A stretch of 23,907 nucleotides of DNA from a virus (Duplodnaviria > Heunggongvirae > Uroviricota > Caudoviricetes): IMG/VR virus record IMGVR_UViG_2711768040_000013; one strand, written 5' to 3'. A model generated the notes under the pieces. It had not been told where the DNA came from, searched no databases, and was given only the letters and a program-made list of their open reading frames with translations. The translations under genes and the position numbers were made by a program. Numbering within the stretch: the stretch's first letter is position 1; each line of letters opens with the position of its first letter. Shown piece by piece: positions 1,404 to 23,907 of this stretch.

Positions 1404-1480
1404 ATTGATTTGAGAATAAACCAGCGTCTAAACGGTTTTGAGTGGTTTAGAAAGGGCTGGATCCTATGAGGGTACCATAT

Positions 1481-1753
1481 ATGGACGCTGAAAATTATGT
1501 GATTCAGTATCCGCTTGATGCGGTTCATGTGGATAAATTTGCTGATTTATTAGGGAAGCCAAAGACAGCCGTCAGTGAAATGGTGAAGGCAAATAAATTA
1601 CCAATTATTGAATTGCGTGATCCTTGCAAACCGAAGGCTCGTGCCGGTGAAAAATGGGTTTTCATTCCTGAGTTTAATCGCGCTGTACGTGAGGCGTTTT
1701 ATAACCGACCGGTTGAACAGCGTGATGCATGGCTTTTGTGGATGGGGTTGTGA
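1481..1753 (+). CDS. cox: Cox-like excisionase / early transcriptional repressor
   Basis: C-terminal part (PIIELRDP...RAGEKWVFIPEFN...RPVEQRDAWLLWMGL) resembles P2 Cox as recalled; GAGGG Shine-Dalgarno 7 nt before ATG 1481; in-frame ATG at 1466 is an alternative. Confidence 0.7.
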   Translation: MDAENYVIQYPLDAVHVDKFADLLGKPKTAVSEMVKANKLPIIELRDPCKPKARAGEKWVFIPEFNRAVREAFYNRPVEQRDAWLLWMGL

Positions 1754-3237: not shown

Positions 3238-3509
3238 GTATTCGTATTGAAATTGGCGAACGTTATGTCGTTACCAGTGACAGCTTTCAGTTTATTCTCC
3301 ACGAGAAAAAGAGAGCTGAAAGTGGTAAAAACGCCGGTCAGGAATGGCTGGCGGTGGTTGGTTATTACCCGAAATTAAGCCAGCTCGTTTCCGGCATGAT
3401 GCATCACGATATTCTGACCGGAAGCGCAAAGTCTTTTGCTGATTTAAACGCGCAGGTTGAGCAACTCAGCAAGCGTTGTTCAGAGGCTTTTGGCTCACAT
3501 GGCCGTTAA
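3234..3509 (+). CDS. Hypothetical early protein (91 aa)
   Basis: ATG 3234 overlapping previous stop (ATGA); position equivalent to P2 orf83. Confidence 0.5.
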   Translation: MSIRIEIGERYVVTSDSFQFILHEKKRAESGKNAGQEWLAVVGYYPKLSQLVSGMMHHDILTGSAKSFADLNAQVEQLSKRCSEAFGSHGR

Positions 3510-5775
3510 AGCCTCCGGGCATTTTGTCCCTCCGTCAGCATTTGCCGCAGGCACCGGTAAGACGTTTACCGGTGCTTATGCATGGAACGCGCCACGCGAG
3601 GCCGTCGGGCGCGAAAGACCCCTTACACGTGACGAGATGCGTCAGGTGCAAGGTGTTTTATCCACGATTAACCGCCTGCCTTACTTTTTGCGCTCGCTGT
3701 TTACTTCACGCTATGACTACATCCGGCGCAATAAAAGCCCGGTGCACGGGTTTTATTTCCTCACATCCACTTTTCAGCGTCGTTTATGGCCGCGCATTGA
3801 GCGCGTGAATCAGCGCCATGAAATGAACACCGACGCGTCGTTGCTGTTTCTGGCAGAGCGCGACCATTATGCGCGCCTGCCGGGGATGAATGACAAGGAG
3901 CTGAAAAAGTTTGCCGCCCGTATCTCATCACAGCTTTTCATGATGTATGAGGAACTCTGCGATGCCTGGGTGGATGCGCATGGCGAGAAAGAATCGCTGT
4001 TTACGGATGAGGCGCAGGCTCACCTCTATGGTCATGTTGCTGGCGCTGCACGTGCTTTCAATATTTCCCCTCTCTACTGGAAAAAATACCGTAAAGGACA
4101 GATGACCACGAGGCAGGCATATTCTGCCATTGCCCGCCTGTTTAACGATGAGTGGTGGACTCATCAGCTTAAAGGCCAGCGTATGCGCTGGCATGAGGCG
4201 TTACTGATTGCTGTCGGGGAGGTCAATAAAGACCGTTCTCCTTATGCCAGTAAACATGCCATTCGTGATGTGCGTGCGCGCCGCCAGGCAAATCTGGAGT
4301 TTCTTAAATCGTGTGACCTTGAGAACAGGGAAACCGGCGAGCGCATCGACCTTATCAGTAAGGTGATGGGCAGTATTTCTAATCCTGAAATTCGCCGGAT
4401 GGAGCTGATGAACACCATTGCCGGTATTGAGCGTTACGCCGCTGCAGAGGGTGACGTGGGGATGTTTATCACGCTGACCGCGCCGTCAAAGTATCACCCG
4501 ACACGTCAGGTCGGAAAAGGCGAAAGTAAAACCGTGCAGCTTAATCACGGCTGGAACGATGAGGCATTTAATCCAAAGGATGCGCAGCGTTATCTCTGCC
4601 GTATCTGGAGCCTGATGCGCACGGCATTCAAGGATAATGATTTACAGGTCTACGGTTTGCGTGTCGTCGAGCCACACCACGACGGAACGCCGCACTGGCA
4701 TATGATGCTTTTTTGTAATCCACGCCAGCGTAACCAGATTATTGAAATCATGCGTCGCTACGCGCTCAAAGAGGATGGAGACGAAAGAGGAGCCGCGCGA
4801 AACCGTTTTCAGGCAAAACATCTTAACCGGGGCGGTGCTGCGGGGTATATCGCGAAATACATCTCAAAAAATATCGACGGCTATGCACTGGATGGTCAGC
4901 TCGATAATGATACCGGCAGACCGCTGAAAGATACTGCCGCGGCTGTTACCGCATGGGCGTCAACGTGGCGCATCCCGCAATTTAAAACGGTTGGTCTGCC
5001 GACAATGGGGGCTTACCGTGAACTACGCAAATTGCCTCGCGGCGTCAGCATTGCTGATGAGTTTGACGAGCGCGTCGAGGCTGCACGCGCCGCTGCAGAC
5101 AGTGGTGATTTTGCGTTGTATATCAGCGCGCAGGGCGGGGCAAATGTCCCGCGCGATTGTCAGACTGTCAGGGTCGCCCGTAGCCCGTCGGATGACGTTA
5201 ACGAGTACGAGGAAGAAGTCGAGAGAGTGGTCGGCATTTACGCGCCGCATCTCGGCGCGCGTCATATTCATATCACCAGAACCACGGACTGGCGCATTGT
5301 GCCGAAAGTGCCGGTCGTTGAGCCTTTGACTTTAAAAAGCGGCATCGCCGCGCCTCGGAGTCCTGTCAATAACTGTGGAAAGCTCACCGGTGGTGATACT
5401 TCGTTACCGGCTCCCACACCTTCTGAACACGCCGCAGCAGTGCTTAATCTGGTTGATGACGGTGTTATCGAATGGAATGACCCGGAGGTCGTGAGGGCGC
5501 TCAGGGGCGCATTAAAATACGGGCTGAGAACACCAAATCGTCAGCAGAGAAACGGAAGCCCGTTAAAACCACATGAAATTGCACCATCGGCCAGACTGAC
5601 CCGGTCGGAAAGAATGCAAATTACCCGTATCCGCGTTGACCTTGCTCAGAACGGTATCAGGCCGCAGCGATGGGAGCTTGAGGCGCTGGCGCGTGGCGCG
5701 ACCGTAAATTATGACGGGAAACCTTTCACTTATCAGGTCGCTGATGATTGGCCGGGATTTTTGTTACCCATTTGA
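3499..5775 (+). CDS. A: Rolling-circle replication initiator endonuclease (P2 gpA-like)
   Basis: Protein from MAVKASGHFVPPSAFAAGTGK resembles P2 A as recalled; HUH-type metal-binding motif HWHMMLF and tyrosine motif YIAKYISKN present; track start 3457 would add 14 residues and a longer overlap. Confidence 0.88.
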   Translation: MAVKASGHFVPPSAFAAGTGKTFTGAYAWNAPREAVGRERPLTRDEMRQVQGVLSTINRLPYFLRSLFTSRYDYIRRNKSPVHGFYFLTSTFQRRLWPRIERVNQRHEMNTDASLLFLAERDHYARLPGMNDKELKKFAARISSQLFMMYEELCDAWVDAHGEKESLFTDEAQAHLYGHVAGAARAFNISPLYWKKYRKGQMTTRQAYSAIARLFNDEWWTHQLKGQRMRWHEALLIAVGEVNKDRSPYASKHAIRDVRARRQANLEFLKSCDLENRETGERIDLISKVMGSISNPEIRRMELMNTIAGIERYAAAEGDVGMFITLTAPSKYHPTRQVGKGESKTVQLNHGWNDEAFNPKDAQRYLCRIWSLMRTAFKDNDLQVYGLRVVEPHHDGTPHWHMMLFCNPRQRNQIIEIMRRYALKEDGDERGAARNRFQAKHLNRGGAAGYIAKYISKNIDGYALDGQLDNDTGRPLKDTAAAVTAWASTWRIPQFKTVGLPTMGAYRELRKLPRGVSIADEFDERVEAARAAADSGDFALYISAQGGANVPRDCQTVRVARSPSDDVNEYEEEVERVVGIYAPHLGARHIHITRTTDWRIVPKVPVVEPLTLKSGIAAPRSPVNNCGKLTGGDTSLPAPTPSEHAAAVLNLVDDGVIEWNDPEVVRALRGALKYGLRTPNRQQRNGSPLKPHEIAPSARLTRSERMQITRIRVDLAQNGIRPQRWELEALARGATVNYDGKPFTYQVADDWPGFLLPI

Positions 5776-6035
5776 GTAAAAATACAGCGTGATTTTATAT
5801 GTCTTTGAATGGATTATGCGAAGCACCTCTAAGGTAGATGAGGAGCAATAGCGTGTTGAATCAGAAGGCTAAATTGTATTGAATCGTTAGCATGTAATTG
5901 AAGGCAGCTATTTGATTCGAGTCATAAAAGAGCATCTATTTCGGTTAATAAAACCATTGCGAGTGACTTTATGTCGAAGCATAATTCATCTCGAGCGAAG
6001 TCTTGCTAGTCTTTCATCGGATTGATGACGGGCGC

Positions 6036-6066
6036 AAAAAAACCACCCTGGCAGGTGGTTTTTTTG
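6036..6066. terminator. Bidirectional rho-independent terminator
   Basis: AAAAAAACCACC-CTGGCA-GGTGGTTTTTTT: perfect GC-containing stem flanked by A-tract and T-tract; about 260 bp after the gene A stop. Confidence 0.75.
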
Positions 6067-6077
6067 TTTGAAGCATA

Positions 6078-6191
6078 CTAAAGAAAAATACTTACATGGA
6101 TATTACTGACGTTTACTGACAAACCACTCGGACTACCATATGGATAGCCAAAGAGGGCCAGAACGAGAATGCAGTAATAGCACTTCTTCAT
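6078..6191 (-). CDS. Small hydrophobic peptide (37 aa, MKKCYYCILVLALFGYPYGSPSGLSVNVSNIHVSIFL), function unknown
   Basis: ATG at 6191 with AGGAGG 4 nt upstream on the minus strand; stop about 12 nt before the bidirectional terminator; below the 60-aa track cut-off; hand translation. Confidence 0.3.
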   Translation of the reverse strand: MKKCYYCILVLALFGYPYGSPSGLSVNVSNIHVSIFL

Positions 6192-6847
6192 ATCGCCTCC
6201 TGTAAGCAGAGGGCAATTTCCGCCGATATATGCGCTTCTAAGGCGGAGTGACTATTGAGCGAAGTCTTGCCCTGAAATAATGCTCTGTTTAAACGCAAAG
6301 TGATCTGGCATATCACTGAACAGAGAACCTGAACAACACAACATATAGTATGTCGTTGTTTCTGGTTGCATTTTATGTTGTGTAATACTGGTTTTGCATC
6401 AAGGATGTTTGAGCTTTTTTTGATATAGCTCAAAGTAAAAAGCAGAGACTACGGATGATAAGGTCTTGAAAGCAATGTAAATTTTTTAAAGTTGTGAGTG
6501 GCTAGAAATGCACAGTTTCAATATGGCGGATTTAAACAAGTAATTAAAAATAGCGCCATAAATTCCAATAAAATCATTATGTTGCGTTTTCTGTGGAAAC
6601 TGCGGTGACTCTGAAATTTTCTTTTAGTGTCGCTGAGGTTTAACAACTCGCTGCGCAAGTAGTTAGTGTTTTTTTAACTCAATATCCTGATTTATAAGGT
6701 TTTTTATAAATCGTTGGCTGATTGCGCGTATTCATCTCGTGTTATCAGCAAAGATAAGCGCTATATGCAAAACTGAATGCATATATGATGTCGAAAATGT
6801 TATGGGAAAACGTGGATTAGTGTTATAGTAATGGCTGAAAAACAGCC

Positions 6848-6876
6848 TTGACATAAAATAACAACTGTGATATGGC
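6848..6876 (+). promoter_or_regulatory. Candidate sigma70 promoter for the peptidase gene (perfect -35 TTGACA, weak -10 near TATGGC)
   Basis: TTGACA at 6848-6853 with a poor -10 about 17 bp downstream, roughly 40 bp before the ATG at 6913. Confidence 0.3.
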
Positions 6877-6912
6877 TGTGCATACTTAACTTTTTTAACG
6901 TAGGAGGCAACC

Positions 6913-7398
6913 ATGAGCTATGCAGCTAAAAAACTGCTTGACCGCTATTGGGATCGCCGACTACCTGTCGATCCGTTTAAGCTTGCTAAAGCGTGGGGTG
7001 CTCGTGTTGAAGCACTTGAGGAATCGGCTTATAACAACGATGGGTTAAGCGGTCTGGCTGTCATCAAAAAGGGTGTCCATAGGATTTATTTTGATTCTAG
7101 TGAACATTCTAATCGTCAACGTTTTACTGTTGCACACGAGTTAGGTCATCATGTGCTGGGGCATACCCAGGACGGAGAGTACCATCGGGATAATGTCGGG
7201 AATTATTCAACAGGTGCTCGTGATTACCGTGAGGTTGAAGCAAACAAGTTTGCTGCTGAGTTGTTAATGCCTGAGTCTGCTATACGTCAATTGGTATCCA
7301 GAGAAGGTATTGATAGCACTTTGAGATTAGCAAGCATCTTTAATGTATCAGAAGCCGCTATGCATTGGCGCTTAAAGAGCTTAGGAATGGCTTATTAA
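6913..7398 (+). CDS. ImmA/IrrE-family (COG2856-like) zinc metallopeptidase, standalone
   Basis: HEXXH motif HELGH at 7135-7149 within FTVAHELGHHVLGH, followed by EVEANKFAAELLMPE as in ImmA/IrrE peptidases; AGGAGG Shine-Dalgarno 5 nt before the ATG; no HTH domain in the protein or in an adjacent ORF. Confidence 0.7.
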   Translation: MSYAAKKLLDRYWDRRLPVDPFKLAKAWGARVEALEESAYNNDGLSGLAVIKKGVHRIYFDSSEHSNRQRFTVAHELGHHVLGHTQDGEYHRDNVGNYSTGARDYREVEANKFAAELLMPESAIRQLVSREGIDSTLRLASIFNVSEAAMHWRLKSLGMAY

Positions 7399-7424
7399 TT
7401 AGCCTTTAACTTTTAACCTGTTTA

Positions 7425-7464
7425 AAATCACCTTTACGTTTGTACATGTAAGGGTGATTTTTTT
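7425..7464 (+). terminator. Hairpin plus T7 tract (terminator-like) directly abutting the next start codon
   Basis: AAATCACCTTTAC pairs with GTAAGGGTGATTT (13-bp stem, one U-G wobble), then TTTTTTT 7458-7464; the ATG of the next ORF starts at 7465 and its GGGTGA ribosome-binding site lies in the 3' arm. Confidence 0.55.
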
Positions 7465-8064
7465 ATGGCTGATATTGATTTATCTGGACAGTCCCCAGAG
7501 CAAGGAACCACTCCTAAGGGCGATTTAGATCCTGATATCCTTATAAGGCGAGATCGACGCGATGGTATAGAGCGTAGAAGTATGCGATTAGTGCTCTCTG
7601 CCGTTGTGCTTTGTTTTGCTTGTACATTTCTATGGCAGGGGCTTAACTTTGCTTTGGCTGTTGGAAATGGCTTGCTGGAAGCGAAAAGCAGTATTGCCAC
7701 AGCGATAACACAAAAAGTAGATGCACAAACTTGTGTTTCAGCAGAAAAATGTTCTGCTTTATCTGCGGATCCGAAGATGGCTGATGAGAGGATAACACCA
7801 TCTTCAGACACTAATAAAGTTAGAAAATCTATTTCTGGTTTATCCACCGATTGGTTATCGGCCAGTTCTCTAATAGCTATTGTTGCATTCATCCTTGGTG
7901 TGGGTTTAACTTTGCTTTTGACTCTTCTTAAATCAGCATTTCAACACCCGACAGATAAAGACTTTAGAACAAAGTCGACATCTAATACTATTGAGTTGGC
8001 CACGCCAATCAGTGAATTAATAATTGGTGTTCTGAATATAATTAAAGACAAACTATCTAAGTAA
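7465..8064 (+). CDS. Membrane protein with two predicted transmembrane segments (199 aa), function unknown
   Basis: Hydrophobic stretches LVLSAVVLCFACTFLWQGLNFALAV and LIAIVAFILGVGLTLLLTLL; basic N-terminus (RRDRRDGIERR); start uncertain (internal ATG at 7582 possible). Confidence 0.55.
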   Translation: MADIDLSGQSPEQGTTPKGDLDPDILIRRDRRDGIERRSMRLVLSAVVLCFACTFLWQGLNFALAVGNGLLEAKSSIATAITQKVDAQTCVSAEKCSALSADPKMADERITPSSDTNKVRKSISGLSTDWLSASSLIAIVAFILGVGLTLLLTLLKSAFQHPTDKDFRTKSTSNTIELATPISELIIGVLNIIKDKLSK

Positions 8065-8106
8065 AGCATTAGTTGTGATTTTTTATTGGTTTTAGTGATA
8101 ATACAT

Positions 8107-8140
8107 CTCCAGTACTTATTGCTACTGGAGAGTATTTTTA
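8107..8140 (+). terminator. Hairpin CTCCAGTA-N8-TACTGGAG plus T-rich tail between convergent genes
   Basis: Perfect 8-bp inverted repeat 8107-8114 / 8123-8130 followed by AGTATTTTTA. Confidence 0.45.
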
Positions 8141-8146
8141 GTCGTT

Positions 8147-9088
8147 TTATATTTTTAATGTTAGTGAATGATATTCACGAGAGTTCACGTTCGATGTGAT
8201 GTAATCGGGGGCGTTAACACCAAGAATCGCAACGAGCAATCGGCAAATTAAAGCCTGCATTTGTTGTAATATGTCATCTCCATATTGATAATTGTTAATA
8301 GTGGTAAAGCCAAGTGGTTGACCATGAAACATAGCTTCATGAAAGTTTTCATTGCGGATGTTTGTAATGTTTTTTTTGCCTGTAACCCATGATGGTCGTG
8401 GTATGCCATAAGTTTTGCAGATCCACTTCAAGCGCCTGGAGTGATTTAGAGTCTTTTCTGTACACTTGTTCTTTTCTGCCCATGTTAAAGCAAAGCAACT
8501 ATCCAGTGCCATATAAAGATACTGGAATTTTTCGAAGCTAAGGTATTGTGGGTTTTGGGATAAAAATAGTGCATGCACTATTGCTGCTATATTTATTGGT
8601 GCGTGTTTGGTTTTTTTCTCGCTAGACATGTATTTGAGTGCTAATTCTATAACCTCTTTTTCAGAGCACTTGACCAGAATAAAGTCAGTTAATTTGCTGG
8701 GTTTTATTGGGGTTGCGTCTAAAAAACCGGCATCAGTAGTTGTTAATCTTATCCCTTTGAAAAAAGACAGACACCACACAGCAAAATTGAGAGTTTCTAG
8801 TGAAGATGTATTTTTTAATTTTAGTGAGTGTGTTTTGGGTAAGCCAAATACTCGTTGGCTAAAAGGCATTGTGGATATGCCTCCATTGAGGTTATATACT
8901 TCTTGGTTTCCTGGGTATATCCAACCGTTAATAACATTTCTGTGATTGTTTATAAGATTTGTTTTTTCCGCTAGACCGGGTAAAGTAAGTAAAGAAAAAT
9001 CATCAGTTTCAACGTTAACCTCTACTGGATAGTATCCAAACTCAGCTTCAATATCATTGGATTGCTGTTCGTCAACTTTACCTTGCAT
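8147..9088 (-). CDS. Hypothetical 313-aa protein with C-terminal HEPN-like RNxxxH motif (candidate abortive-infection RNase)
   Basis: Long ORF in visibly AT-rich DNA; GGAG Shine-Dalgarno 6 nt before the ATG at 9088; R245-N-E-N-F-H250 encoded at 8339-8356 fits the Rx4-6H HEPN signature; no P-loop; otherwise not recognised. Confidence 0.6.
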   Translation of the reverse strand: MQGKVDEQQSNDIEAEFGYYPVEVNVETDDFSLLTLPGLAEKTNLINNHRNVINGWIYPGNQEVYNLNGGISTMPFSQRVFGLPKTHSLKLKNTSSLETLNFAVWCLSFFKGIRLTTTDAGFLDATPIKPSKLTDFILVKCSEKEVIELALKYMSSEKKTKHAPINIAAIVHALFLSQNPQYLSFEKFQYLYMALDSCFALTWAEKNKCTEKTLNHSRRLKWICKTYGIPRPSWVTGKKNITNIRNENFHEAMFHGQPLGFTTINNYQYGDDILQQMQALICRLLVAILGVNAPDYITSNVNSREYHSLTLKI

Positions 9089-9202
9089 ACATTGCTCCGG
9101 TCAAAAATAGGCTCGATAATTCTCGTAAGCCTATCATGTTCGCAAAGTATCCATACCTGTGGATTTTGTAAATTTAAGTTGATTTGTCATTAAATAAGCC
9201 GT

Positions 9203-9231
9203 GCATGCAACAAGTGAATGTTTTTGCATGC
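9203..9231. promoter_or_regulatory. Inverted repeat GCATGCAA-N13-TTGCATGC upstream of the 313-aa gene
   Basis: Read directly; about 115 bp upstream of the 313-aa gene start, in its likely promoter region. Confidence 0.3.
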
Positions 9232-9325
9232 GTCGGGGATGCCCGTTCCGGCTGCTTGCGGTCAGAGCTGGTGCGGATCCATAGTATCTAAGCAACTGCA
9301 TTAAAACCGCCCTATGAAGCGGGCG

Positions 9326-9344
9326 GGCGAGGCGGGGAAAGCAC
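9326..9344. other. cos site: 19-nt P2-type cohesive-end sequence GGCGAGGCGGGGAAAGCAC
   Basis: Exact match to the P2 cohesive end as I recall it, in the expected position downstream of Q, inside a GC-rich non-coding stretch. Confidence 0.7.
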
Positions 9345-9486
9345 TGCGCGCTGGCGGTGGTGCTGATTTTATTTTTTCAGCGTCTGAGCGCGTCGTGACG
9401 GCGCTTAGTCTGCCCGTTGAGGCGTTGGTGTGTCTGCGGGGTGTTTTGTGCGGTGGTGAGCGTGTGAGGGCGTGATGACGAGGTGT

Positions 9487-9510
9487 AAAAAAGCCGCCCG
9501 CAGGCGGCGA
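9487..9510 (-). terminator. Rho-independent terminator after portal gene Q (minus strand)
   Basis: On the minus strand GCCGCC-TGCG-GGCGGC followed by TTTTTT, immediately 3' of the Q stop. Confidence 0.6.
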
Positions 9511-9513
9511 TGT

Positions 9514-10548
9514 TCAGCCGTTGTCAGTGTCCAGTGAGTAGTTTTTAAAGCGGATGACCTCCTGACCGAGCCAGCCGTTTATCTCGCGGATCCTGTCCTG
9601 TAACGGGATAAGCTCATTGCGGACAAAGACCTTTGCCACTTTCTCAATATCTCCCAGTGACCCGACGTTCTCCGGCTTGCCGCCCATCAACTGAAAGGGG
9701 ATGCGGTGTGCGTCCAGCAGGTCTGCGGCGCTGGCTTTTTTGATATTAAAAAAATCGTCCTTCGTCGCCACTTCACTGAGCGGGATAATTTTAATGCCGT
9801 CGGCTTTCCCTTGCGGGGCATAGAGAAACAGATTTTTAAAGTTGTTGCGGCCTTTCGACTTCACCATGTTTTCGCGGAGCATTTCGATATCGTTGCGATC
9901 CTGCACGGCATCGGTGACGTACATGATGTATCCGGCATGTGCGCCGTTTTCGTAATACTTGCGGCGGAACAGCGTGGCCGACTCATTCAGCCAGGCAGAG
10001 TTAAGGGCGCTGAGATATTCCGGCAGGCCGTACAGCTCCTGATTAATATCCGGCTCCAGCAGGTGAAACACGGAGCCGGGCGCGAAAGGTGTCGGCTCAT
10101 GGAAGGACGGCACCCACCAGTAAACATCCTCTTCCACGCCACGGCGGGTATATTTTGCCGGTGAGGTTTCCAGTCTGATGACCTTACCGGTGGTGCTGTA
10201 ACGCTTTTCCAGAAACGCATTACCGAACACCAGAAAATCCAGCACAAAGCGGCTGAAATCCTGCTGAGAAAGCCACGGGTGCGGGATAAACGTTGAAGCC
10301 AGAATATTGCGTTTGACGTAAATCGGTGAGCTGTGATGCACGGCAGCACGCAGGCTTTTTGCCAGACCGGTAAAGCTGACCGGTGGCTCATACCATCTGC
10401 CGTTACTGATGCACTCGACGTAATCCAGAATGTCACGGCGGTCGAGTACCGGCACCGGCTCACCAAAGGTGAATGCCTCCATTTTCGGGGCGCTGGCGGT
10501 CATTTTTTTTGCCGCAGGTTGCGGTGTTTTCCCTTTTTTCTTGCTCAT
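9514..10548 (-). CDS. Q: Portal protein (P2 gpQ-like)
   Basis: 344 aa, same length as P2 Q; position and orientation next to terminase as in P2. Confidence 0.88.
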   Translation of the reverse strand: MSKKKGKTPQPAAKKMTASAPKMEAFTFGEPVPVLDRRDILDYVECISNGRWYEPPVSFTGLAKSLRAAVHHSSPIYVKRNILASTFIPHPWLSQQDFSRFVLDFLVFGNAFLEKRYSTTGKVIRLETSPAKYTRRGVEEDVYWWVPSFHEPTPFAPGSVFHLLEPDINQELYGLPEYLSALNSAWLNESATLFRRKYYENGAHAGYIMYVTDAVQDRNDIEMLRENMVKSKGRNNFKNLFLYAPQGKADGIKIIPLSEVATKDDFFNIKKASAADLLDAHRIPFQLMGGKPENVGSLGDIEKVAKVFVRNELIPLQDRIREINGWLGQEVIRFKNYSLDTDNG

Positions 10549-12320
10549 CAGTAAAACTCCAGAATGGTGGATGTCAGCGGGGTGCTGATACCGGCGGTGA
10601 GTGGCTCATTTAACAGGGCGTGCATGGTCGCCCAGGCGAGGTCGGCGTGGCTGGCTTCCTCGCTGCGGCTGGCCTCATAGGTGGCACTGCGTCCGCTGCT
10701 GGTCATGGTCTTGCGGATAGCCATAAACGAGCTGGTGATGTCGGTGGCGCTGACGTCGTATTCCAGACAGCCACGGCGGATGACGTCTTTTGCCTTGAGC
10801 ACCATTGCGGTTTTCATTTCCGGCGTGTAGCGGATGTCGCGCGCGGCGGGATAGAACGAGCGCACGAGCTGGAACACGCCGACACCGAGGCCGGTGGCAT
10901 CAATACCGATGTATTCGACGTTGTATTTTTCGGTGAGTTTGCGGATGGATTCCGCCTGAGTGGCAAAGTCCATGCCTTTCCACTGGTGACGCTCAAGTAT
11001 TCTGAATTTGCCACCGGCCACCACCGGCGGTGCCAGCACCACGCATCCGGCACTGTCGCCACGGTGTGACGGGTCGTAACCAATCCAGACCGGGCGGGAG
11101 CCGAACGGATTCGCGGCAAACGGCGCATAGTCTTCCCATTCTTCCAGCGTGTCGACCATGCAGCGTTGCAGCTCCTCGAACGGGAATACCGACGCCTTGT
11201 CGTCAACAAATTCACACATGAACAGGTTTTTAAAATCGTCGGCGCTGTTTTCACGTTTGAGCTGCTCAATGTCGAACAGCGTGCAGCCACCTTTCAGGGC
11301 GTCCTCAATGGTGACAATCTGCCGCCACTGGCCGTCCGCACAGAGAAGCCCACCGGCAAGGGCGTTATGACTGACGTCGATTTCCACGCGTTCGGCGGCG
11401 CTGGCGCGTCCCCGGTTGAACAGTTCACCTGACCAGAACGGGTAGGCGTCGTGCGCCAGCGTGGACGGGGTGGAGAAATAGGTCGAACGCAGGTGACTCT
11501 GTGAGGCCATACCTGATGCCACCTTACGCAGTACCTGAAAATTCGGGATCCAGAAAATCTCGTCGACGTACAGGTCGCCGTTATGGCTCTGTGCGGTGTT
11601 GGAGTTGGTGCCGAGAAAAATCAGTTTTGCGCCGTTATTGCCCAGGACAATCGGGTCACCGGTCAGGTCAACGTCAACCAGCCGGGCAAAGGCGATGATG
11701 TATTCACGGAACACATACGCCTGCGTTTTACTGGCCGACAGAAAAATCTGGTTATGGCCGGTTTTCAGGGCGCGCAGCAGCGCCTCGCGGGAAAAATAAA
11801 ACGTTGCGCCAATCTGGCGGGATTTCAGGATATCGCGGATGCGGTGCTCAAGCCCGGCGCGATACCAGTGCAACTGATAGTCGAAAGACTGCTCAAAGAA
11901 AATCTGCTCCAGCTTTTCGATGGCCTCGTCACTGAAAAAATTCTTTTTCGGTTTGCGACGCCCGCCTTTGTTGCGGTTAGCGAAGTTCGGATTAAGGTCT
12001 GCCTCGTTGCCGGTCTGACTGTAGCGGTTGACCCGTGCCAGTCGTTCAATCTGGCGTCCCAGCAGGTCAATTTCCTTGAAGTCACCGCCGGTTTTCTGCG
12101 GTTTGATGATGAGCTGGGTCAGCCGCGCTTCCAGACTCATTTCGACACGGCTGATGGGGGCAACGCTGTCCCAGCCGTCGCGCTGTTTCCAGCTCTGCAC
12201 CGTCGGGCGTTTCATCTGCAACATGGCGGCAATCTGCGGCACGGAAAACCCCTGCCAGTACAGCAGCGCCGCCTGACGACGCGGGTCGTGTAAAAGAGTG
12301 GTGTCTGTGGTGATGGTCAT
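10548..12320 (-). CDS. P: Terminase large (ATPase) subunit (P2 gpP-like)
   Basis: 590 aa from MTITTDTT (GAGG Shine-Dalgarno upstream of ATG 12320), same length as P2 P; track start 12350 adds 10 residues. Confidence 0.88.
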   Translation of the reverse strand: MTITTDTTLLHDPRRQAALLYWQGFSVPQIAAMLQMKRPTVQSWKQRDGWDSVAPISRVEMSLEARLTQLIIKPQKTGGDFKEIDLLGRQIERLARVNRYSQTGNEADLNPNFANRNKGGRRKPKKNFFSDEAIEKLEQIFFEQSFDYQLHWYRAGLEHRIRDILKSRQIGATFYFSREALLRALKTGHNQIFLSASKTQAYVFREYIIAFARLVDVDLTGDPIVLGNNGAKLIFLGTNSNTAQSHNGDLYVDEIFWIPNFQVLRKVASGMASQSHLRSTYFSTPSTLAHDAYPFWSGELFNRGRASAAERVEIDVSHNALAGGLLCADGQWRQIVTIEDALKGGCTLFDIEQLKRENSADDFKNLFMCEFVDDKASVFPFEELQRCMVDTLEEWEDYAPFAANPFGSRPVWIGYDPSHRGDSAGCVVLAPPVVAGGKFRILERHQWKGMDFATQAESIRKLTEKYNVEYIGIDATGLGVGVFQLVRSFYPAARDIRYTPEMKTAMVLKAKDVIRRGCLEYDVSATDITSSFMAIRKTMTSSGRSATYEASRSEEASHADLAWATMHALLNEPLTAGISTPLTSTILEFY

Positions 12321-12493
12321 GAATACCTCGCCGTGATGAATACACGGCAAGGCTACTGAGTCGCGTCCCGCGATTCGCTAAGGTGCTGTTGTGTCAGTGA
12401 TAAGCCATCCGGGACTGATGGCGGAGGATGCGCATCGTCGGGAAACTGATGCCGACATGTGACTCCTCTAATCACTATTCAGGACTCCTGACA
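12321..12493. promoter_or_regulatory. Divergent late-promoter region between P and O (includes palindrome CCGTG-N7-CACGG at 12331-12347)
   Basis: 173-bp intergenic gap between divergently transcribed late operons, as in P2; I could not identify a specific activator-binding element by eye. Confidence 0.4.
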
Positions 12494-20653: not shown

Positions 20654-21257
20654 TTCGCGCCTGCTGCCGACCGGCTCATCACTGCTTGAAGTCGCTGCCG
20701 CAAAAGCCTGTGCGGAAATTGAAAAAACACCGGTCAGTATTCGTGAGCTGTGGAACCCGGACACCTGTCCGGCAAATCTGTTGCCGTGGCTGGCGTGGGC
20801 GTTTTCGGTTGACCGCTGGGATGATAAGTGGCCGGAAGTGACAAAACGCGCTGTTATCCGCGATGCGTATTTCATTCACTGCCATAAGGGCACTATTGGT
20901 GCGATTCGCCGTGTGGTGGAGCCGCTCGGCTATCTGATTGAGGTGAGGGAGTGGTGGCAGCTCAACGAGGAGCCGGGGACGTTCCGCATCGTTGTTGGCG
21001 TGCTTGAGCAGGGTATTACCGAGGAAATGTATCAGGAGCTGGAGCGTCTCGTTGCTGATGCAAAACCTGCAAGCCGCCATCTGACGGGACTGGCTATCAG
21101 TTTAAGTACAACCGGCAACATTTTTGCCGGTGCGGGATGCTATCACGGTGACGCCCTGACGGTTTATCCCTACACCCCGGAGGCCATTATTGTCGGAGGG
21201 GATTATTTCCCGGCCTCGGCCATTCATTTAATTGATAACCTGAGAGTAAACGCATGA
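20646..21257 (+). CDS. I: Baseplate/tail-fibre attachment protein I
   Basis: 203 aa; N-terminal two-thirds resemble P2 I as recalled, C-terminal part differs and is longer than my recollection of P2 I. Confidence 0.8.
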   Translation: MSDSRLLPTGSSLLEVAAAKACAEIEKTPVSIRELWNPDTCPANLLPWLAWAFSVDRWDDKWPEVTKRAVIRDAYFIHCHKGTIGAIRRVVEPLGYLIEVREWWQLNEEPGTFRIVVGVLEQGITEEMYQELERLVADAKPASRHLTGLAISLSTTGNIFAGAGCYHGDALTVYPYTPEAIIVGGDYFPASAIHLIDNLRVNA

Positions 21258-22390
21258 CAGTGAAATACTACGCCATTCTGACTAATCAGGGCGCAGCACG
21301 GCTGGCTAACGCGACGATGCTCGGCAGTAAGCTGAATCTGACGCAAATGGCCGTTGGTGATGCGAATGGTGTCTTGCCGACACCAGACCCGGCACAGACA
21401 AAACTGATTAACCAGAAACGCATTGCGCCGCTGAATCTTCTGAGTGTTGACCCGAACAACCAGAGCCAGATTATTGCGGAGCAAATCATCCCTGAGAACG
21501 AGGGCGGATTCTGGATCCGTGAGATTGGGCTTTATGATGATGAAGGCGTACTCATTGCGGTGGCGAACTGCCCGGAAACGTACAAACCGCAGTTGCAGGA
21601 AGGCAGTGGTCGTACCCAGACTATCCGCATGATTCTGGTTGTCACGAATACCGAAGCTATCACGCTGAAAATCGACCCGTCGGTGGTACTGGCGACCCGT
21701 AAATACGTGGATGATGAAGTCCTGGAATTAAGGCTGTATGTGGATGACCAGATGAGAAACCACATTGCCGCACAGGATCCTCATACCCAGTATGCGCAGA
21801 AACATAATCCGACATTTACCGGAGAACCAAAAGCGCCGACGCCTGCCGCAGGAAATAACACCACGCGGATTGCGACCACTGCGTTTGTTCAGGCTGCTAT
21901 TACCGCTATGATTAACGGTGCGCCTGCCACGCTGGATACACTGAAAGAAATTGCCGCAGCCATTAACAATGACCCGAAATTCAGCACCACCATTAACAAT
22001 GCGCTGTCAGGTAAGCAGCCACTGGATGAGACGCTGACTCATTTGAGTGGAAAGGATGTTGCCGGTCTTCTCGCATACCTTGGTTTGGGAGAAGCGGCAA
22101 AACGGGATGTGGGGACAGGGGAAAATCAGATACCGGACATGGCTTCTTTTGCCAGTGGTGATGGATGGATGAAATTACCCAACGGGAAAATCCTGCAATA
22201 TGGTCGTGGTGCGGTTACGCCGACATTATCGACGCAAACAATGAGAATTACATTCAGCATCCCTTTCCCCAAAAAAGCGGACTGCGCCATGCTTACTCAT
22301 TCTGGTGATGGCGGTGCGCCTTTAGGCGCTGGGCGAGGGTTCGTGATGACTGCAGAAGGCCCAACGTTAACCGGCTTTGTTGGTGAGTAA
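21254..22390 (+). CDS. H: Tail fibre protein H (conserved N-terminal part plus currently expressed variable C-terminus)
   Basis: 378 aa; N-terminus resembles P2 H as recalled up to about ...LAYLGLGE, then diverges and is much shorter than P2 H. Confidence 0.85.
   Translation: MTVKYYAILTNQGAARLANATMLGSKLNLTQMAVGDANGVLPTPDPAQTKLINQKRIAPLNLLSVDPNNQSQIIAEQIIPENEGGFWIREIGLYDDEGVLIAVANCPETYKPQLQEGSGRTQTIRMILVVTNTEAITLKIDPSVVLATRKYVDDEVLELRLYVDDQMRNHIAAQDPHTQYAQKHNPTFTGEPKAPTPAAGNNTTRIATTAFVQAAITAMINGAPATLDTLKEIAAAINNDPKFSTTINNALSGKQPLDETLTHLSGKDVAGLLAYLGLGEAAKRDVGTGENQIPDMASFASGDGWMKLPNGKILQYGRGAVTPTLSTQTMRITFSIPFPKKADCAMLTHSGDGGAPLGAGRGFVMTAEGPTLTGFVGE
22068..22093. repeat. Candidate 26-bp serine-invertase crossover site inside H: TTCTCGCATACC-TT-GGTTTGGGAGAA
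   Basis: Near-palindromic half-sites around a central TT; centre ACCTTGGTTT resembles hix/gix/cix-type sites as recalled; the right half-site is repeated inverted at the window end. Confidence 0.55.
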
Positions 22391-22410
22391 TTTTATTCAG
22401 GGTGATTTAT

Positions 22411-22854
22411 ATGAACGAATATGTTTATAGCGCAAGGCATAATGCTTTTTTCCCTGTGGATATGATTGATAAATATAAATCAGAGGGATGGGATTTATCA
22501 GACGCTAAGGAAGTAAATCAAAATATTATCAGTGAGTTTATGGCTGAACCGCCACAAGGAAAAATCCGTATTGCCGGAGATGATGGGCTGCCTGCGTGGG
22601 CAGATATTCCTCCACCCACGCATGAAGAGCTTATTGAAATTACTGAATCAGAAAGACAGCTACTAATTAACCAGGCCAACGAATACATGAACAGTAAGCA
22701 ATGGCCCGGTAAAGCCGCTATTGGTCGTCTGAAAGGTGAGGAACTGGCGCAATATAATTTGTGGCTGGATTATCTGGATGCACTGGAGCTGGTTGATACC
22801 TCCAGTGCGCCAGATATTGAATGGCCTACGCCTCCGGCAGTTCAGGCCAGATGA
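22411..22854 (+). CDS. Tail fibre assembly chaperone (Tfa/gpG/U-like)
   Basis: About 147 aa from ATG 22411 (track starts at an upstream GTG 22402); C-terminal motif ...LWLDYLDALELVDTSSAPDIEWP is shared with the oppositely oriented tfa copy. Confidence 0.8.
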   Translation: MNEYVYSARHNAFFPVDMIDKYKSEGWDLSDAKEVNQNIISEFMAEPPQGKIRIAGDDGLPAWADIPPPTHEELIEITESERQLLINQANEYMNSKQWPGKAAIGRLKGEELAQYNLWLDYLDALELVDTSSAPDIEWPTPPAVQAR

Positions 22855-23428
22855 CATCCGGCGCGGTGCTGGTATCTGTTGCCGTCACCGCGTCAATGTA
22901 ATCCAGCACAGCGTTAAGTCTGGTTGTTTCTGCCTGCGTCAGTTTACGTCCGGCCTGCAATTTCAGTTGAATCAGACTGATGGAAGCCATTGCTGCATCA
23001 ATCAGTGACTGGCGCTGTGCTTCTGCCGATTCTACTGCGGCACCGTGTTGTGCCTCAGTATCTGTCACCCATTTTTCACCATCCCATTTATCGTATGGCG
23101 TTAACGGGGCGATAGTGGTTGTATTTTCGGGATAGTCGCCTAGTGCTGTTATTTCTTTGGCATCTCCCGTTTCGGTGTTATAGATGATTTCACCGCGATT
23201 GTCTGACACATATTCCCATGATTTTAAATCCACAGAACGGCAAATTGTATAACCAGCCTTAGATGTACCAGGAGCGTCTAAACAGGAATATGCTGGAATA
23301 CCGACACCCACTGCAAGATATTCAGTTGATGCAGAAATATATTCCCGCGTCTCACCATCATAGTTATAGACGGTAATATTCCCCGCCTTCGTGGCAATAA
23401 GCTCGCTATTTAATACGGCGTTATCCAT
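22826..23428 (-). CDS. Tail fibre assembly chaperone, alternative copy (U'-like) on the opposite strand
   Basis: 200 aa; C-terminal motif ...LNAVLDYIDAVTATDTSTAPDVIWP matches the plus-strand tfa; 3' ends of the two tfa genes overlap tail-to-tail by 29 bp. Confidence 0.8.
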   Translation of the reverse strand: MDNAVLNSELIATKAGNITVYNYDGETREYISASTEYLAVGVGIPAYSCLDAPGTSKAGYTICRSVDLKSWEYVSDNRGEIIYNTETGDAKEITALGDYPENTTTIAPLTPYDKWDGEKWVTDTEAQHGAAVESAEAQRQSLIDAAMASISLIQLKLQAGRKLTQAETTRLNAVLDYIDAVTATDTSTAPDVIWPELPEA

Positions 23429-23907
23429 TATGCAGCCCTCACGATAAAGTTAAATGCAATATTTCGTGGACGGGTTTCACTCCCGCCAGTATTACCGATA
23501 CTCCCTCGTGAATGAAGTGTCGGTGATGGGATCAGGCTCCCTCCTGTATTTGTGGCATCAAGTCCTCGCCCTTGTGTGTATGTTTTTTTGAAAATCGTAG
23601 CCAGTTCCCATTCATCTTTCGTGTCGTAACCATCATTGGCAACAACAATATGACGGTGTTTTTCCAGCATTCCTGCCTGAATACTCAATAAAACACGTCC
23701 TGCATCAATACCGCGCCCGTCATCCCAGCCACGAATAAATTCACCTCGTAAATCAGGCAATTTATTTGTCGGGTAAGCCTTTGCCAGTTCCGGGTATTCT
23801 TCAGCAGAAAAAGCCGCACCGTTGCATTTCAGCCAGCCTGTTGGAGGTGTCTCTGAAGGCCACGGAACAGGCGCACCAACAGGTAATGCAGAACCTTCTC
23901 CCAAACC
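23428..23907 (-). CDS. Alternative tail-fibre C-terminal receptor-binding segment (Sv'-like), 5' end outside window, no start of its own
   Basis: Open frame to the window edge; ends ...RNIAFNFIVRAA, like the Mu S / P1 S fibre C-terminus as recalled; its stop overlaps the tfa' start (TAATG); its first in-window codons (L-G-E) are encoded by the inverted repeat. Confidence 0.7.
   Translation of the reverse strand, partial: GLGEGSALPVGAPVPWPSETPPTGWLKCNGAAFSAEEYPELAKAYPTNKLPDLRGEFIRGWDDGRGIDAGRVLLSIQAGMLEKHRHIVVANDGYDTKDEWELATIFKKTYTQGRGLDATNTGGSLIPSPTLHSRGSIGNTGGSETRPRNIAFNFIVRAA
23895..23907. repeat. Partial right crossover site (reverse complement of GGTTTGGGAGAAG), truncated by the window end
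   Basis: Plus-strand 23895-23907 CTTCTCCCAAACC is the exact reverse complement of 22082-22094. Confidence 0.55.

Follow-up and report, generated by a model that had tools for sequence, protein, structure and literature searches.

A metallopeptidase and two-transmembrane protein gene pair in an Escherichia coli P2-type prophage as a probable RosmerTA-like module

The analysed window, a 23,907-nt stretch of DNA from the caudovirus record IMGVR_UViG_2711768040_000013, carries two co-oriented ORFs, of 161 and 199 codons, that were both present as the sequence-only reading had described them (Table 1). In RefSeq the first is labelled 'ImmA/IrrE family metallo-endopeptidase' and the second 'hypothetical protein'. 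The peptidase and the two-transmembrane (two-TM) protein form a module that is cargo in the replicase-portal hotspot of an E. coli P2-type prophage, and in P2 this hotspot houses tin/old and many defence systems (PMC9519451; PMC9122126). The convergent 313-aa gene was considered as a third component and rejected, because it is absent from locus L002 and from every other locus of the pair and is present elsewhere without it.

Table 1. Features of the two-gene module and its surroundings (positions in the window)
Feature	Position	Strand	Details
Putative sigma-70 promoter of the two-gene operon	6848..6876	+	TTGACA at 6848-6853, then TG-n-TATGGC, an extended -10, at 6868-6876; function inferred
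AGGAGG, strong Shine-Dalgarno of the peptidase gene	6902..6907	+	5 nt upstream of the ATG
Standalone M78 (ImmA/IrrE/RmrA-type) zinc metallopeptidase, 161 aa	6913..7398	+	PF06114, 3.8e-21; proposed antitoxin/regulator
Intrinsic-terminator-like hairpin with T7 run	7424..7464	+	5' arm 7424-7439, loop 7440-7445 (6 nt), 3' arm 7446-7461, T-run 7458-7464
Two-TM inner-membrane protein, 199 aa, phrog_8096	7465..8064	+	Alignment, hydropathy, AlphaFold; proposed toxin/effector
Bidirectional terminator-like hairpin closing the operon	8106..8131	.	Terminator scan, both strands; common to the convergent 313-aa gene
Convergent 313-aa gene, outside the module	8147-9088	-	Occurs without the pair in P2-EC67 and Yersinia P2-like phages

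The putative promoter was not flagged by a consensus scan because its -10 element is weak. Its -35 hexamer, spacing and TG-n-TA(A/T)GGC element are kept in 7 diverged loci, in which the sequence further upstream is not kept. The sequence GTAGGAGGC(A/T)ACCATG is found in 11 enterobacterial loci, also where the remaining upstream region is unrelated, with L002 lacking the variable base. A search for a LexA box at the operon promoter found none.

Peptidase_M78 (PF06114) was the sole Pfam domain of the peptidase, and its HEXXH...E site (H75, E76, H79, E107) does not vary across 31 homologues. The best PADLOC score was for capP (1.1e-30), where residues 4-157 aligned to positions 8-153 of 242, and the PADLOC RmrA models matched with values down to 6e-17 through their peptidase half alone (positions ~146-267 of 363). 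The NCBIfam model antitox_spr1629 matched at 7.6e-9 over positions 203-295 of 377, with a score of 35 that is far under the cutoff of 335. The closest solved structures were CapP (7t5t) and IrrE (3dte), with residues 81-182 of the 301 in IrrE covered. The peptidase has no sensor domain, because the protein stops at residue 161 and the peptidase fold takes up its whole length. The suggestion that it senses damage is thus not supported, given the lack of both a LexA box at the promoter and a sensor domain.

The peptidase was confirmed to stand alone, as the sequence-only reading had it. Pfam detected no HTH domain in the protein, whose 161 aa all align to the peptidase domain; within 1.1 kb upstream there are no ORFs longer than 81 aa, and those present matched nothing in Pfam at a threshold as loose as E<=10; and at none of the related loci is the pair next to an HTH gene. 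Checking the upstream and neighbouring ORFs, we also found no cognate Xre antitoxin gene, which an Xre-COG2856 type II toxin-antitoxin system would carry in its operon. Within the window, the HTH protein closest to the pair is the P2-type C repressor (HTH_3; 1051-1344), at a distance of ~5.5 kb. At 19 distant loci the 119 neighbouring ORFs gave one HTH_3 and one HTH_31 (XRE-type) match, possibly to the same ORF, and no recurrent family. The absence of an HTH partner is not the exception that it had been taken for: standalone peptidases of ~160 aa followed by a two-TM partner occur in Proteobacteria, Actinobacteria and CPR bacteria, and the validated RmrA of Gordonia phage Kita is HTH-less as well. 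An N-terminal XRE HTH is 'often' present on RosmerTA antitoxins (Ernits et al. 2023, PMC10440598), and since Kita RmrA is without one, the domain is typical of these antitoxins and not obligatory.

The two-TM protein had no match in Pfam, PADLOC or NCBIfam. Neither Foldseek, run with an AlphaFold model of moderate confidence (pLDDT 65), nor a sequence search returned anything meaningful from the PDB, and a first search of the genome contigs with a profile of the membrane protein gave no match. From the N-terminus, the protein comprises a disordered tail with a D-L-S-G motif at residues 5-8, TM1 (~41-65), a variable loop with two Cys, a highly conserved TM2 (~133-155; invariant A141, L144, G145, G147, L148, T149, L150, L152 and T153), a linker and an amphipathic helix (182-197); the helices of the model span residues 25-88, 116-159 and 182-197. 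A D-[LFY]-[SAG]-x-[GP...] motif lies at residues 4-20 in 30 of 51 two-TM partners, the tails of which are otherwise hypervariable. The segment from TM2 to the C-terminus is homologous to short two-TM partners of other standalone peptidases (A1 to A6, hhalign 94%). Decay of a toxin gene was considered for the 'truncated' two-TM homologues and dismissed, as in the Klebsiella example (L032-L034) the DNA is identical and the called start alone differs. The hypervariable periplasmic loop could equally point to a sensor or an exclusion protein.

Between the two genes lies a terminator-like hairpin, for which the sequence-only reading had given a 13-bp stem, a T7 run ending at the ATG of the membrane gene and a GGGTGA Shine-Dalgarno in the 3' arm. 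The last two points held, with GGGTGA at 7452-7457, the T-run serving as the spacer between it and the ATG, and the ATG at 7465; the stem length did not, as it is 16 bp with the four A:U pairs that involve the first Ts of the T-run and 12 bp without them. The segment 7399-7480 (82 nt), in which a 6-bp outer helix adds to the hairpin, has a folding energy of -23.6 kcal/mol (z = -5.3), with none of 200 shuffles folding as well; for the hairpin region by itself the value is -18.4 kcal/mol. A stable stem-loop stands directly before a U-run of at least 5, as in an intrinsic terminator, and all hairpin-bearing homologues have the same design. The hairpin was missing from the output of a simple terminator scan, presumably because its closing A:U pairs use part of the T-run. 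The stem is A/U-rich, a property that was counted against the explanation favoured below. An Rfam scan of 5600-9600 gave sub-threshold matches only.

The geometry of the hairpin and ribosome-binding site proved to be real, and it is conserved through compensatory changes and on stems of unrelated sequence. In a sample of 209 distinct ATG ORF starts from the window and from enterobacterial and Vibrio loci, we looked for a stem of at least 9 bp ending at most 5 nt before the ATG, with at least 5 U among the last 8 nt. This arrangement was present at 11 of the 11 genes of the membrane-protein family and at none of the 198 other starts. The layout of hairpin, U-run and ATG is kept in all Enterobacterales, Aeromonas, Vibrio and Pseudoalteromonas homologues, where it is built on five unrelated stem cores. 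Among 12 enteric sequences, compensatory double changes were found at 4 pairs, and the covariation score was 0.177 vs 0.086 for shuffles, a value reached by 0 of 500. When a covariance model was made from the enteric hairpins, it detected those of Klebsiella, Aeromonas and Pseudoalteromonas only weakly (E 0.65-9.4), so that conservation across lineages rests on the folding of each sequence. Two other roles were judged unlikely from the sequence: leaderless transcription from within the hairpin, for which there is no plausible -10, and an RNA thermometer, given stems of -13 to -20 kcal/mol. In vivo the hairpin would stop transcription and occlude the Shine-Dalgarno.

An asymmetry of expression is encoded in the DNA and conserved, with AGGAGG for the peptidase against a terminator and a hairpin-buried Shine-Dalgarno for the two-TM gene. 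This bears on which of the two proteins could be harmful. COG2856 peptidases elsewhere have been predicted to be or treated as toxins, one source calls the homologue P0081 a 'toxin', and for Xre-COG2856 type II modules such a role has been proposed; the membrane protein would then be the immunity protein or antitoxin. We regard these reversed roles as highly improbable, since a strong ribosome-binding site on the peptidase and a throttled partner are the opposite of what an antitoxin needs, and since in the Kita pair, which has been validated, it is the peptidase that serves as antitoxin. The same asymmetry weighs on a reading in which the two-TM protein is not toxic and serves as an envelope sensor or anchor that controls the peptidase, which in turn cleaves a cytoplasmic target such as a regulator encoded elsewhere. 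The periplasmic loop, hypervariable in both length and sequence beside a conserved TM2 and conserved cytoplasmic tails, would suit a sensor, the catalytic site is invariant, and M78 peptidases characteristically cleave regulators (ImmR, DdrO and CapH). A stoichiometric regulator is however not expected behind a terminator and a buried Shine-Dalgarno while its partner has AGGAGG, the short-loop relatives, including the validated toxin RmrT, are nearly without a periplasmic loop, and no common target gene travels with the pair, which leaves a sensor-protease pair unlikely.

The two genes were adjacent, in the same order (the peptidase first) and co-oriented in 28 of the 28 loci that were fetched. 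Over the related loci their identities fall in parallel, from 100 to 42% for the peptidase and from 100 to 25% for the two-TM protein. At 99% identity or more, the pair is found in 47 of 5426 complete E. coli genomes (~1%); both genes are annotated in every listed E. coli record, and no partial copy was found. It occurs in at least 13 unrelated contexts across P2-, HK97-, Mu- and lambda-like prophages, plasmids and islands. In P. aeruginosa prophages it lies directly downstream of an S24 CI-type repressor, the position that rexAB occupies in lambda, and in Mu-like prophages it lies between Mor and the lysis genes, being directly upstream of the endolysin in those of Aeromonas. In plasmid or island regions it lies next to Zeta, CbtA/CbeA and anti-restriction genes. 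The contexts of the pair are accessory or defence slots. Behind more remotely related standalone peptidases, the next gene encodes a short two-TM protein (at 19 loci when hydropathy is judged strictly), an SbcB-like exonuclease or a P4 Beta-protein homologue, and such swapping of partners is typical of hubs of this kind.

This distribution also bears on the possibility that the peptidase is an anti-repressor, cleaving in trans an XRE-type repressor, either the element's own C or that of a competitor, with the membrane protein as an accessory. ImmA, IrrE and CapP provide a precedent, the C repressor in the window is an HTH_3 protein, and the homologue of the peptidase in the Pseudoalteromonas P2-like phage ACA1 is annotated 'antirepressor', ACA1 gp1 having been claimed as an antirepressor of the 186 Tum type (PMC10612066). 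The homology to 186 Tum failed in our comparison, however, for the peptidase as for ACA1 gp1 (hhalign 0.2%), and the promoter has no LexA box. Cleavage of the element's own C repressor, which had been put forward from the sequence, does not fit because the elements among which the pair shuttles (P2-, HK97-, Mu- and lambda-like prophages, plasmids and islands) have no repressor in common. Their immunity systems are unrelated, the plasmids and islands have none nearby, and the strict linkage to the two-TM gene would be left unexplained. We consider an anti-repressor role very unlikely.

A role in superinfection exclusion or lysis timing would place the activity at the envelope, the two-TM protein blocking DNA entry or acting like a holin and the peptidase merely processing or maturing it. 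The module is prophage cargo and precedes the endolysin in the Aeromonas Mu-like prophages, and the predicted N-in/C-in topology of the two-TM protein resembles that of class II holins. The SOS operon of phage 186 offers a parallel in the same replicase-to-cos slot, with a small regulator (tum), a partial terminator (t95a) and an infection-blocking product (orf97, which 'blocks 186 infection'). Tum is, however, DinI-like and LexA-controlled, whereas the window module has no LexA box, and homology of the two-TM protein to Orf97 was rejected (hhalign 1.9%). Furthermore, the module is also carried by plasmids and non-phage islands, 199 aa with a long loop is unlike holins, and a constitutive exclusion protein would need no double expression lock. 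The P2 lysis cassette consists of Y, K and lysA/B, and the P2 backbone here should have its own elsewhere. An exclusion or lysis function is accordingly quite unlikely.

On balance, the pair is probably a Kita-type (HTH-less) RosmerTA-like toxin-antitoxin/defence module carried as P2 replicase-portal cargo. As the criteria of RosmerTA have it, it combines an M78 domain with an intact active site and a conserved two-gene operon whose members diverge together. The picture given by the sequence-only reading, in which the peptidase controls a possibly toxic membrane effector whose expression is tightly restricted, matches the closest relative studied by experiment, Kita RmrA/RmrT. For the window pair, we infer toxicity, proteolytic neutralisation, a trigger and anti-phage activity as follows. 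Both genes would be driven by one promoter, and the cytoplasmic zinc peptidase would be efficiently translated from AGGAGG. The hairpin and U-run would halt most transcripts a few bases ahead of the start codon of the membrane gene, and in read-through transcripts the same hairpin would bury its Shine-Dalgarno; with termination and burial combined, synthesis of the two-TM protein would reach only a small fraction of that of the peptidase. The two-TM protein may be a toxic effector that depolarises the membrane or forms pores via its conserved TM2. Catalytically active peptidase would keep leaked toxin harmless by acting on a cytoplasmic tail of the toxin, and the strongest candidate for its recognition site is the conserved D-L-S-x-G motif at the N-terminus. 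Infection or loss of the element would upset this balance, letting the toxin act and abort or exclude the infection.

In a more specific version, which we put forward as speculation and consider unlikely, the antitoxin is proteolytic, reads the D-L-S-x-G tail and continuously destroys leaked toxin, and the hairpin, besides dividing the dosage, is an infection-responsive switch whose read-through, unwinding or cleavage gives a toxin burst. If true, this would be a mechanistically new class of toxin-antitoxin control with the first defined substrate motif of an RmrA-type peptidase, and in these lineages a cis-RNA lock would take the place of the autoregulation that canonical RmrA exerts through its HTH.

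Pairs of an HTH-less peptidase and a two-TM protein constitute a widespread and coherent family. The E. coli/P2 variant offers a tractable native host for studying how a RosmerTA peptidase neutralises its toxin and what the trigger is (PMC12795458), together with a candidate toxin recognition motif (D-L-S-x-G) and a conserved, mutable RNA element that would set the antitoxin:toxin ratio. With it, a type of cargo in the P2 defence hotspot that had no annotation gains a probable function; PADLOC models gave no match for the proposed toxin component.

Compared with known systems, the window peptidase has in common with ImmA/ImmR, IrrE/DdrO and CapP/CapH the M78 fold and the HEXXH...E site. Those systems have an adjacent or fused XRE substrate, whereas the window peptidase has none adjacent; it is also without the C-terminal GAF-like sensor domain of IrrE and CapP, and the CBASS or DNA-repair regulon context of the CapP/IrrE systems is absent around the pair. 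Canonical RosmerTA (Millman et al. 2022) and spr1629/RipB-type systems, like the window pair as proposed here, join a zinc-peptidase antitoxin with a variable toxin of unknown fold. Canonical RmrA is however ~360-400 aa long with an N-terminal XRE HTH, against 161 aa and no HTH here, and its gene order is often toxin first, whereas here the peptidase comes first.

The closest counterpart is the RmrA/RmrT pair (RmrA_D25/RmrT_D5) of Gordonia phage Kita, for which toxicity, partial neutralisation, membrane depolarisation and defence against Bas54 and Bas59 were reported in E. coli (Ernits et al. 2023, PMC10440598). Its antitoxin neutralised the toxin only partly, and the complex could not be modelled (PMC10440598). 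Kita RmrA (178 aa, M78 only, HTH-less) is 38% identical to the window peptidase over its full length (residues 4-160 of the latter), and both pairs gave the same database pattern of capP, then the peptidase half of RmrA, and nothing for the partner. Both are phage or prophage cargo, and in both the gene directly behind the peptidase, on the same strand, encodes a two-TM protein whose N-terminal tail is acidic and disordered. The Kita genes, in contrast, overlap by 4 nt without a hairpin, and Kita RmrT (119 aa, with a tight TM hairpin at the C-terminus) has neither the long periplasmic loop nor the C-terminal amphipathic helix of the window protein. Sequence comparison detected no direct homology between the two-TM protein and Kita RmrT or the family of the latter (hhalign 0.8-2.8%), RmrT being sequence-diverse by definition, and the two are linked indirectly by a chain from A1 to A6 and from A6 to the Kita-type family (hhalign 61% for the second step). 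The module closely resembles the peptidase-toxin defence pair already validated in Kita.

The window was identified as a P2-like prophage of E. coli from the ORF table, Pfam matches and the way an identical locus is annotated in RefSeq. Between gene A and the portal gene, a low-GC island (about 34–45%) contains an ORF-poor stretch, the peptidase gene, the membrane-protein gene and a convergent 313-aa gene. This slot is occupied by tin/old in P2 and is a documented defence hotspot (PMC9519451; PMC9122126). The whole island was present in 46 complete E. coli genomes. The peptidase and membrane-protein pair was found at an identity of at least 99% in 47 and as a 73% variant in three more; both genes were annotated in all of the listed E. 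coli records, and no record among the listed complete genomes had one gene of the pair alone.

Features of the prophage and its cargo (window coordinates)
Feature	Position	Strand	Basis or remark
Long ORF, presumed integrase	1–1011	−	by position only
XRE-type C repressor	1051–1344	−	ORF table, Pfam, RefSeq
cox	1466–1753		ORF table, Pfam, RefSeq
Replication endonuclease A	3457–5775		ORF table, Pfam, RefSeq
ORF-poor stretch of the island	5776–6912
Conserved part of this stretch	5776–~6500		immediately 3′ of gene A stop; unannotated in RefSeq
Terminator-like hairpin (GCGCAAAAAAACCACCCTGGCAGGTGGTTTTTTTG)	about 6031–6065		perfect, bidirectional
81-aa ORF	6188–6433	−	TTG start
M78 peptidase gene	6913–7398	+
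Hairpin	7424–7461		16-bp stem counting A:U closing pairs, 6-nt loop
GGGTGA	7452–7457		within 3′ arm of hairpin
T7 run	7458–7464		ends at membrane-gene ATG (7465)
Membrane-protein gene	7465–8064	+	199 aa
313-aa gene (phrog_5937)	8147–9088	−	convergent with module, terminator in common
Portal	9514–10548	−	ORF table, Pfam, RefSeq
Terminase	10548–12350	−	late genes beyond
Tail-fibre gene	21254–22390
Assembly gene	22402–22854
Second Caudo_TAP gene	22826–23428	opposite to tail fibre
Collar-domain ORF	23428–23904	opposite to tail fibre	to within 3 nt of window end

The sequence-only reading had described a standalone peptidase without an HTH partner, followed by a hairpin, T7 run, buried Shine-Dalgarno (SD) sequence and ATG. 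All of these elements were present, and the observation as a whole was confirmed and strengthened. The peptidase is a 161-aa protein with an M78 domain alone (Pfam, PADLOC), in which H75, E76, H79 and E107 were invariant across 31 homologues, and the 1.1 kb preceding its gene contained no HTH ORF by the ORF table or Pfam. In contrast to the membrane gene with its buried SD, the peptidase gene has a conserved AGGAGG site and a conserved predicted promoter (TTGACA/extended −10).

Loci were collected from homologues of the membrane protein first and then from those of the peptidase. In every locus, a peptidase of 161–170 aa was encoded immediately 5′ of a two-TM gene in the same orientation, the two proteins lost identity in parallel, and no conserved HTH neighbour was found in any locus collected for the pair. 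The two genes are thus one unit across otherwise unrelated host contexts, which included other P2-like prophages (L002, L016–L021), an HK97-like prophage of Pectobacterium, a chromosomal island of Serratia, Enterobacter contigs beside a Zeta toxin (the protein labelled plasmid-borne by one source), an island beside CbtA/CbeA and anti-restriction genes, a Vibrio harveyi island, a phage region adjoining a tape-measure gene, P2/HP1-like prophages of Klebsiella, Mu-like prophages of Aeromonas (between Mor and endolysin), P. aeruginosa prophages and Maridesulfovibrio. In the P. aeruginosa prophages (L029–L031, 2507–4434), the peptidase and a 135-aa two-TM protein were encoded directly 3′ of an S24 (CI/LexA-type) repressor and co-oriented with it, suggesting that the pair is expressed in the lysogen along with the repressor; rexA-rexB of lambda occupies the same place after cI. 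In the Serratia island (L005/L006), a canonical 371-aa HTH_3 and Peptidase_M78 fusion resembling RmrA, the peptidase antitoxin of RosmerTA, was found at 8131–9246, preceded by a 223-aa gene and about 2.5 kb downstream of the HTH-less pair, so that two peptidase-based modules of different architecture lie side by side.

All of the enterobacterial homologues retained AAATCACC...GGTGATTTTTTT-ATG before the membrane gene. Across 12 sequences, the inner stem showed compensatory changes with 4 pairs altered on both sides; 90.6% of cells were paired, compared with 33–65% when partners were slid, and the covariation score was 0.177, whereas shuffles gave 0.086 and none of 500 reached the observed value. 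We considered it more telling that unrelated stems with the same geometry were found in Klebsiella (AAAGCCACC...GGTGGCTTTTTTT-ATG), Aeromonas (AAAGCCACCT...AGGTGGCTTTTTTT-ATG), Vibrio (AAGCCCTCA...TGAGGGCTTTTTA-ATG), locus L022 (AACCCTCTG...CAGAGGGTTTTTT-ATG) and Pseudoalteromonas phage ACA1 (AGCCCTT...AAGGGCTTTTTT-ATG). In each of them, the 3′ arm contains an SD-like, purine-rich stretch (GGUG or GAGG), which the U-run separates from the AUG as a spacer. This geometry occurred at 11 of 209 ORF starts, all belonging to genes of this membrane-protein family. The hairpin was not found in P. aeruginosa, Desulfovibrio-like loci, Gordonia phage Kita or the majority of distant lineages, where the genes abut or overlap; it is therefore a conserved but lineage-specific device. 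We infer that it would stop most transcripts just 5′ of the AUG and occlude the SD in the remaining ones, which would yield a high ratio of peptidase to membrane protein. The same Klebsiella DNA (4059–4769) was called as a 236-aa protein in L032 and a 160-aa protein in L033 and L034; the true start, behind the hairpin with its buried SD, was evidently missed by gene callers, and judging from this one checked example some other 'short' database homologues may also be start-site artefacts.

The membrane protein matched no Pfam, PADLOC or NCBIfam family, phrog_8096 (function unknown) being its sole assignment, and its family amounts to a small number of clusters (57 at 50% identity) in a set of 1.84 billion proteins. 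Judged from the alignment, from hydropathy and from an AlphaFold model (pLDDT 65), the protein begins with an N-terminal tail that is disordered, and an Arg-rich juxtamembrane segment leads into TM1. A hypervariable loop containing two Cys, probably periplasmic by the positive-inside rule, connects TM1 to TM2, which is nearly invariant ((A)FILGVGLTL(L/I)LTLLK); a linker and a C-terminal amphipathic helix follow. The part from TM2 to the C-terminus was homologous (hhalign 94%, E 1.3e-7) to two-TM proteins with short loops that accompany other standalone peptidases. In 30 of 51 two-TM partners, including Pseudomonas and beta-proteobacterial ones, residues 4–20 contained a motif D-(L/F/Y)-(S/A/G)-x-(G/P...) within otherwise unalignable tails, a candidate recognition site for the peptidase.

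ALTERNATIVES not favoured were a trans-acting anti-repressor, SOS control and a three-gene system. The first is contradicted by the spread of the pair across elements whose immunity systems are unrelated and by the obligate linkage of the peptidase to the two-TM gene, which also make the earlier suggestion of C-repressor cleavage unlikely. For SOS control, a LexA box was looked for at the promoter and was absent. The 313-aa neighbour, without a match in Pfam, PADLOC or NCBIfam, is independent cargo rather than a third component: homologous DNA occurs without the pair in Yersinia P2-like phages and in the 2.6-kb P2-EC67 record, presumably the retron Ec67 locus, making it an independent candidate hotspot gene. 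In P2-like phage ACA1 (L121, 277–1520), gp1/gp2 are the same module with its own hairpin, U-run and ATG. ACA1 gp1 is annotated 'antirepressor' and described as homologous to 186 Tum (PMC10612066), a homology unsupported by profile comparison (probability 0.2%); the equivalent position of phage 186 has an analogous layout of tum, a partial terminator and orf97.

Two other regions of the window were also noted. The stretch following gene A was conserved in four P2-like prophages with different cargo, where alignment columns averaged 93% identity and long runs showed almost no variation. It was found in 150 of the 5426 complete E. coli genomes and formed most of the 'empty' hotspot of NCTC9040 (A, 1082 gene-less nt, portal). 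Its 81-aa ORF had no Pfam match and differed from that of L002, another P2-like prophage, at 5 of 81 amino acids; we suspect that it is non-coding. Rfam gave sub-threshold matches only, and the P2 backbone may have here an ncRNA or a cis element that has so far escaped characterisation. The tail-fibre end of the window is laid out like an invertible segment that would determine host range by offering alternative fibre ends.

Distant standalone M78 peptidases (35–41% identity) were followed by proteins other than a two-TM partner: SbcB-like exonucleases (RNase_T and Exonuc_X-T_C, about 450–470 aa; Pfam-confirmed in L059, L060, L064 and L080, presumed from size only in L061 and L078), shorter RNase_T-only proteins (L055, L057) or homologues of phage P4 Beta protein (PF14350; L071, L106). 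Such partner swapping is expected of a defence/TA hub, and these pairings appear not to have been described previously.

PADLOC models of RmrA, which serves RosmerTA as its zinc-peptidase antitoxin (Millman 2022 preprint; Ernits 2023, PMC10440598), matched the window peptidase via the peptidase half alone. By sequence comparison, the decisive link to known systems is Gordonia phage Kita, whose RmrA (YP_009301393) is also M78-only, shares 38% identity over window residues 4–160 and has an identical database match pattern. Kita RmrT (YP_009301394) is toxic, depolarising and permeabilising the membrane, is neutralised in part by RmrA, and with it defends E. coli against Bas54 and Bas59 (Ernits 2023, PMC10440598). 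The combination of an HTH-less peptidase and a two-TM partner has hence already been validated, and the missing HTH partner, earlier taken as exceptional, is normal for this sub-family. What stood of that interpretation, and what we consider the best reading, is a membrane effector that is probably toxic, locked in its expression and controlled by the peptidase. Direct homology between the window two-TM protein and Kita RmrT, a 119-aa two-TM protein, was not detectable by hhalign; an intermediate family linked the two partner types at 61%, a suggestive bridge and no more. We rate the module as a putative Kita-type RosmerTA, the window pair being probably a gamma-proteobacterial relative of the Kita pair. 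The module matters for its conserved hairpin, a proposed terminator/SD double lock, and for the candidate toxin motif, through which the mechanism of RmrA could become open to tests in E. coli. Compared with the Kita pair, whose genes have no hairpin, the window pair has a longer partner from another putative family of toxins and, in addition, the proposed RNA lock.
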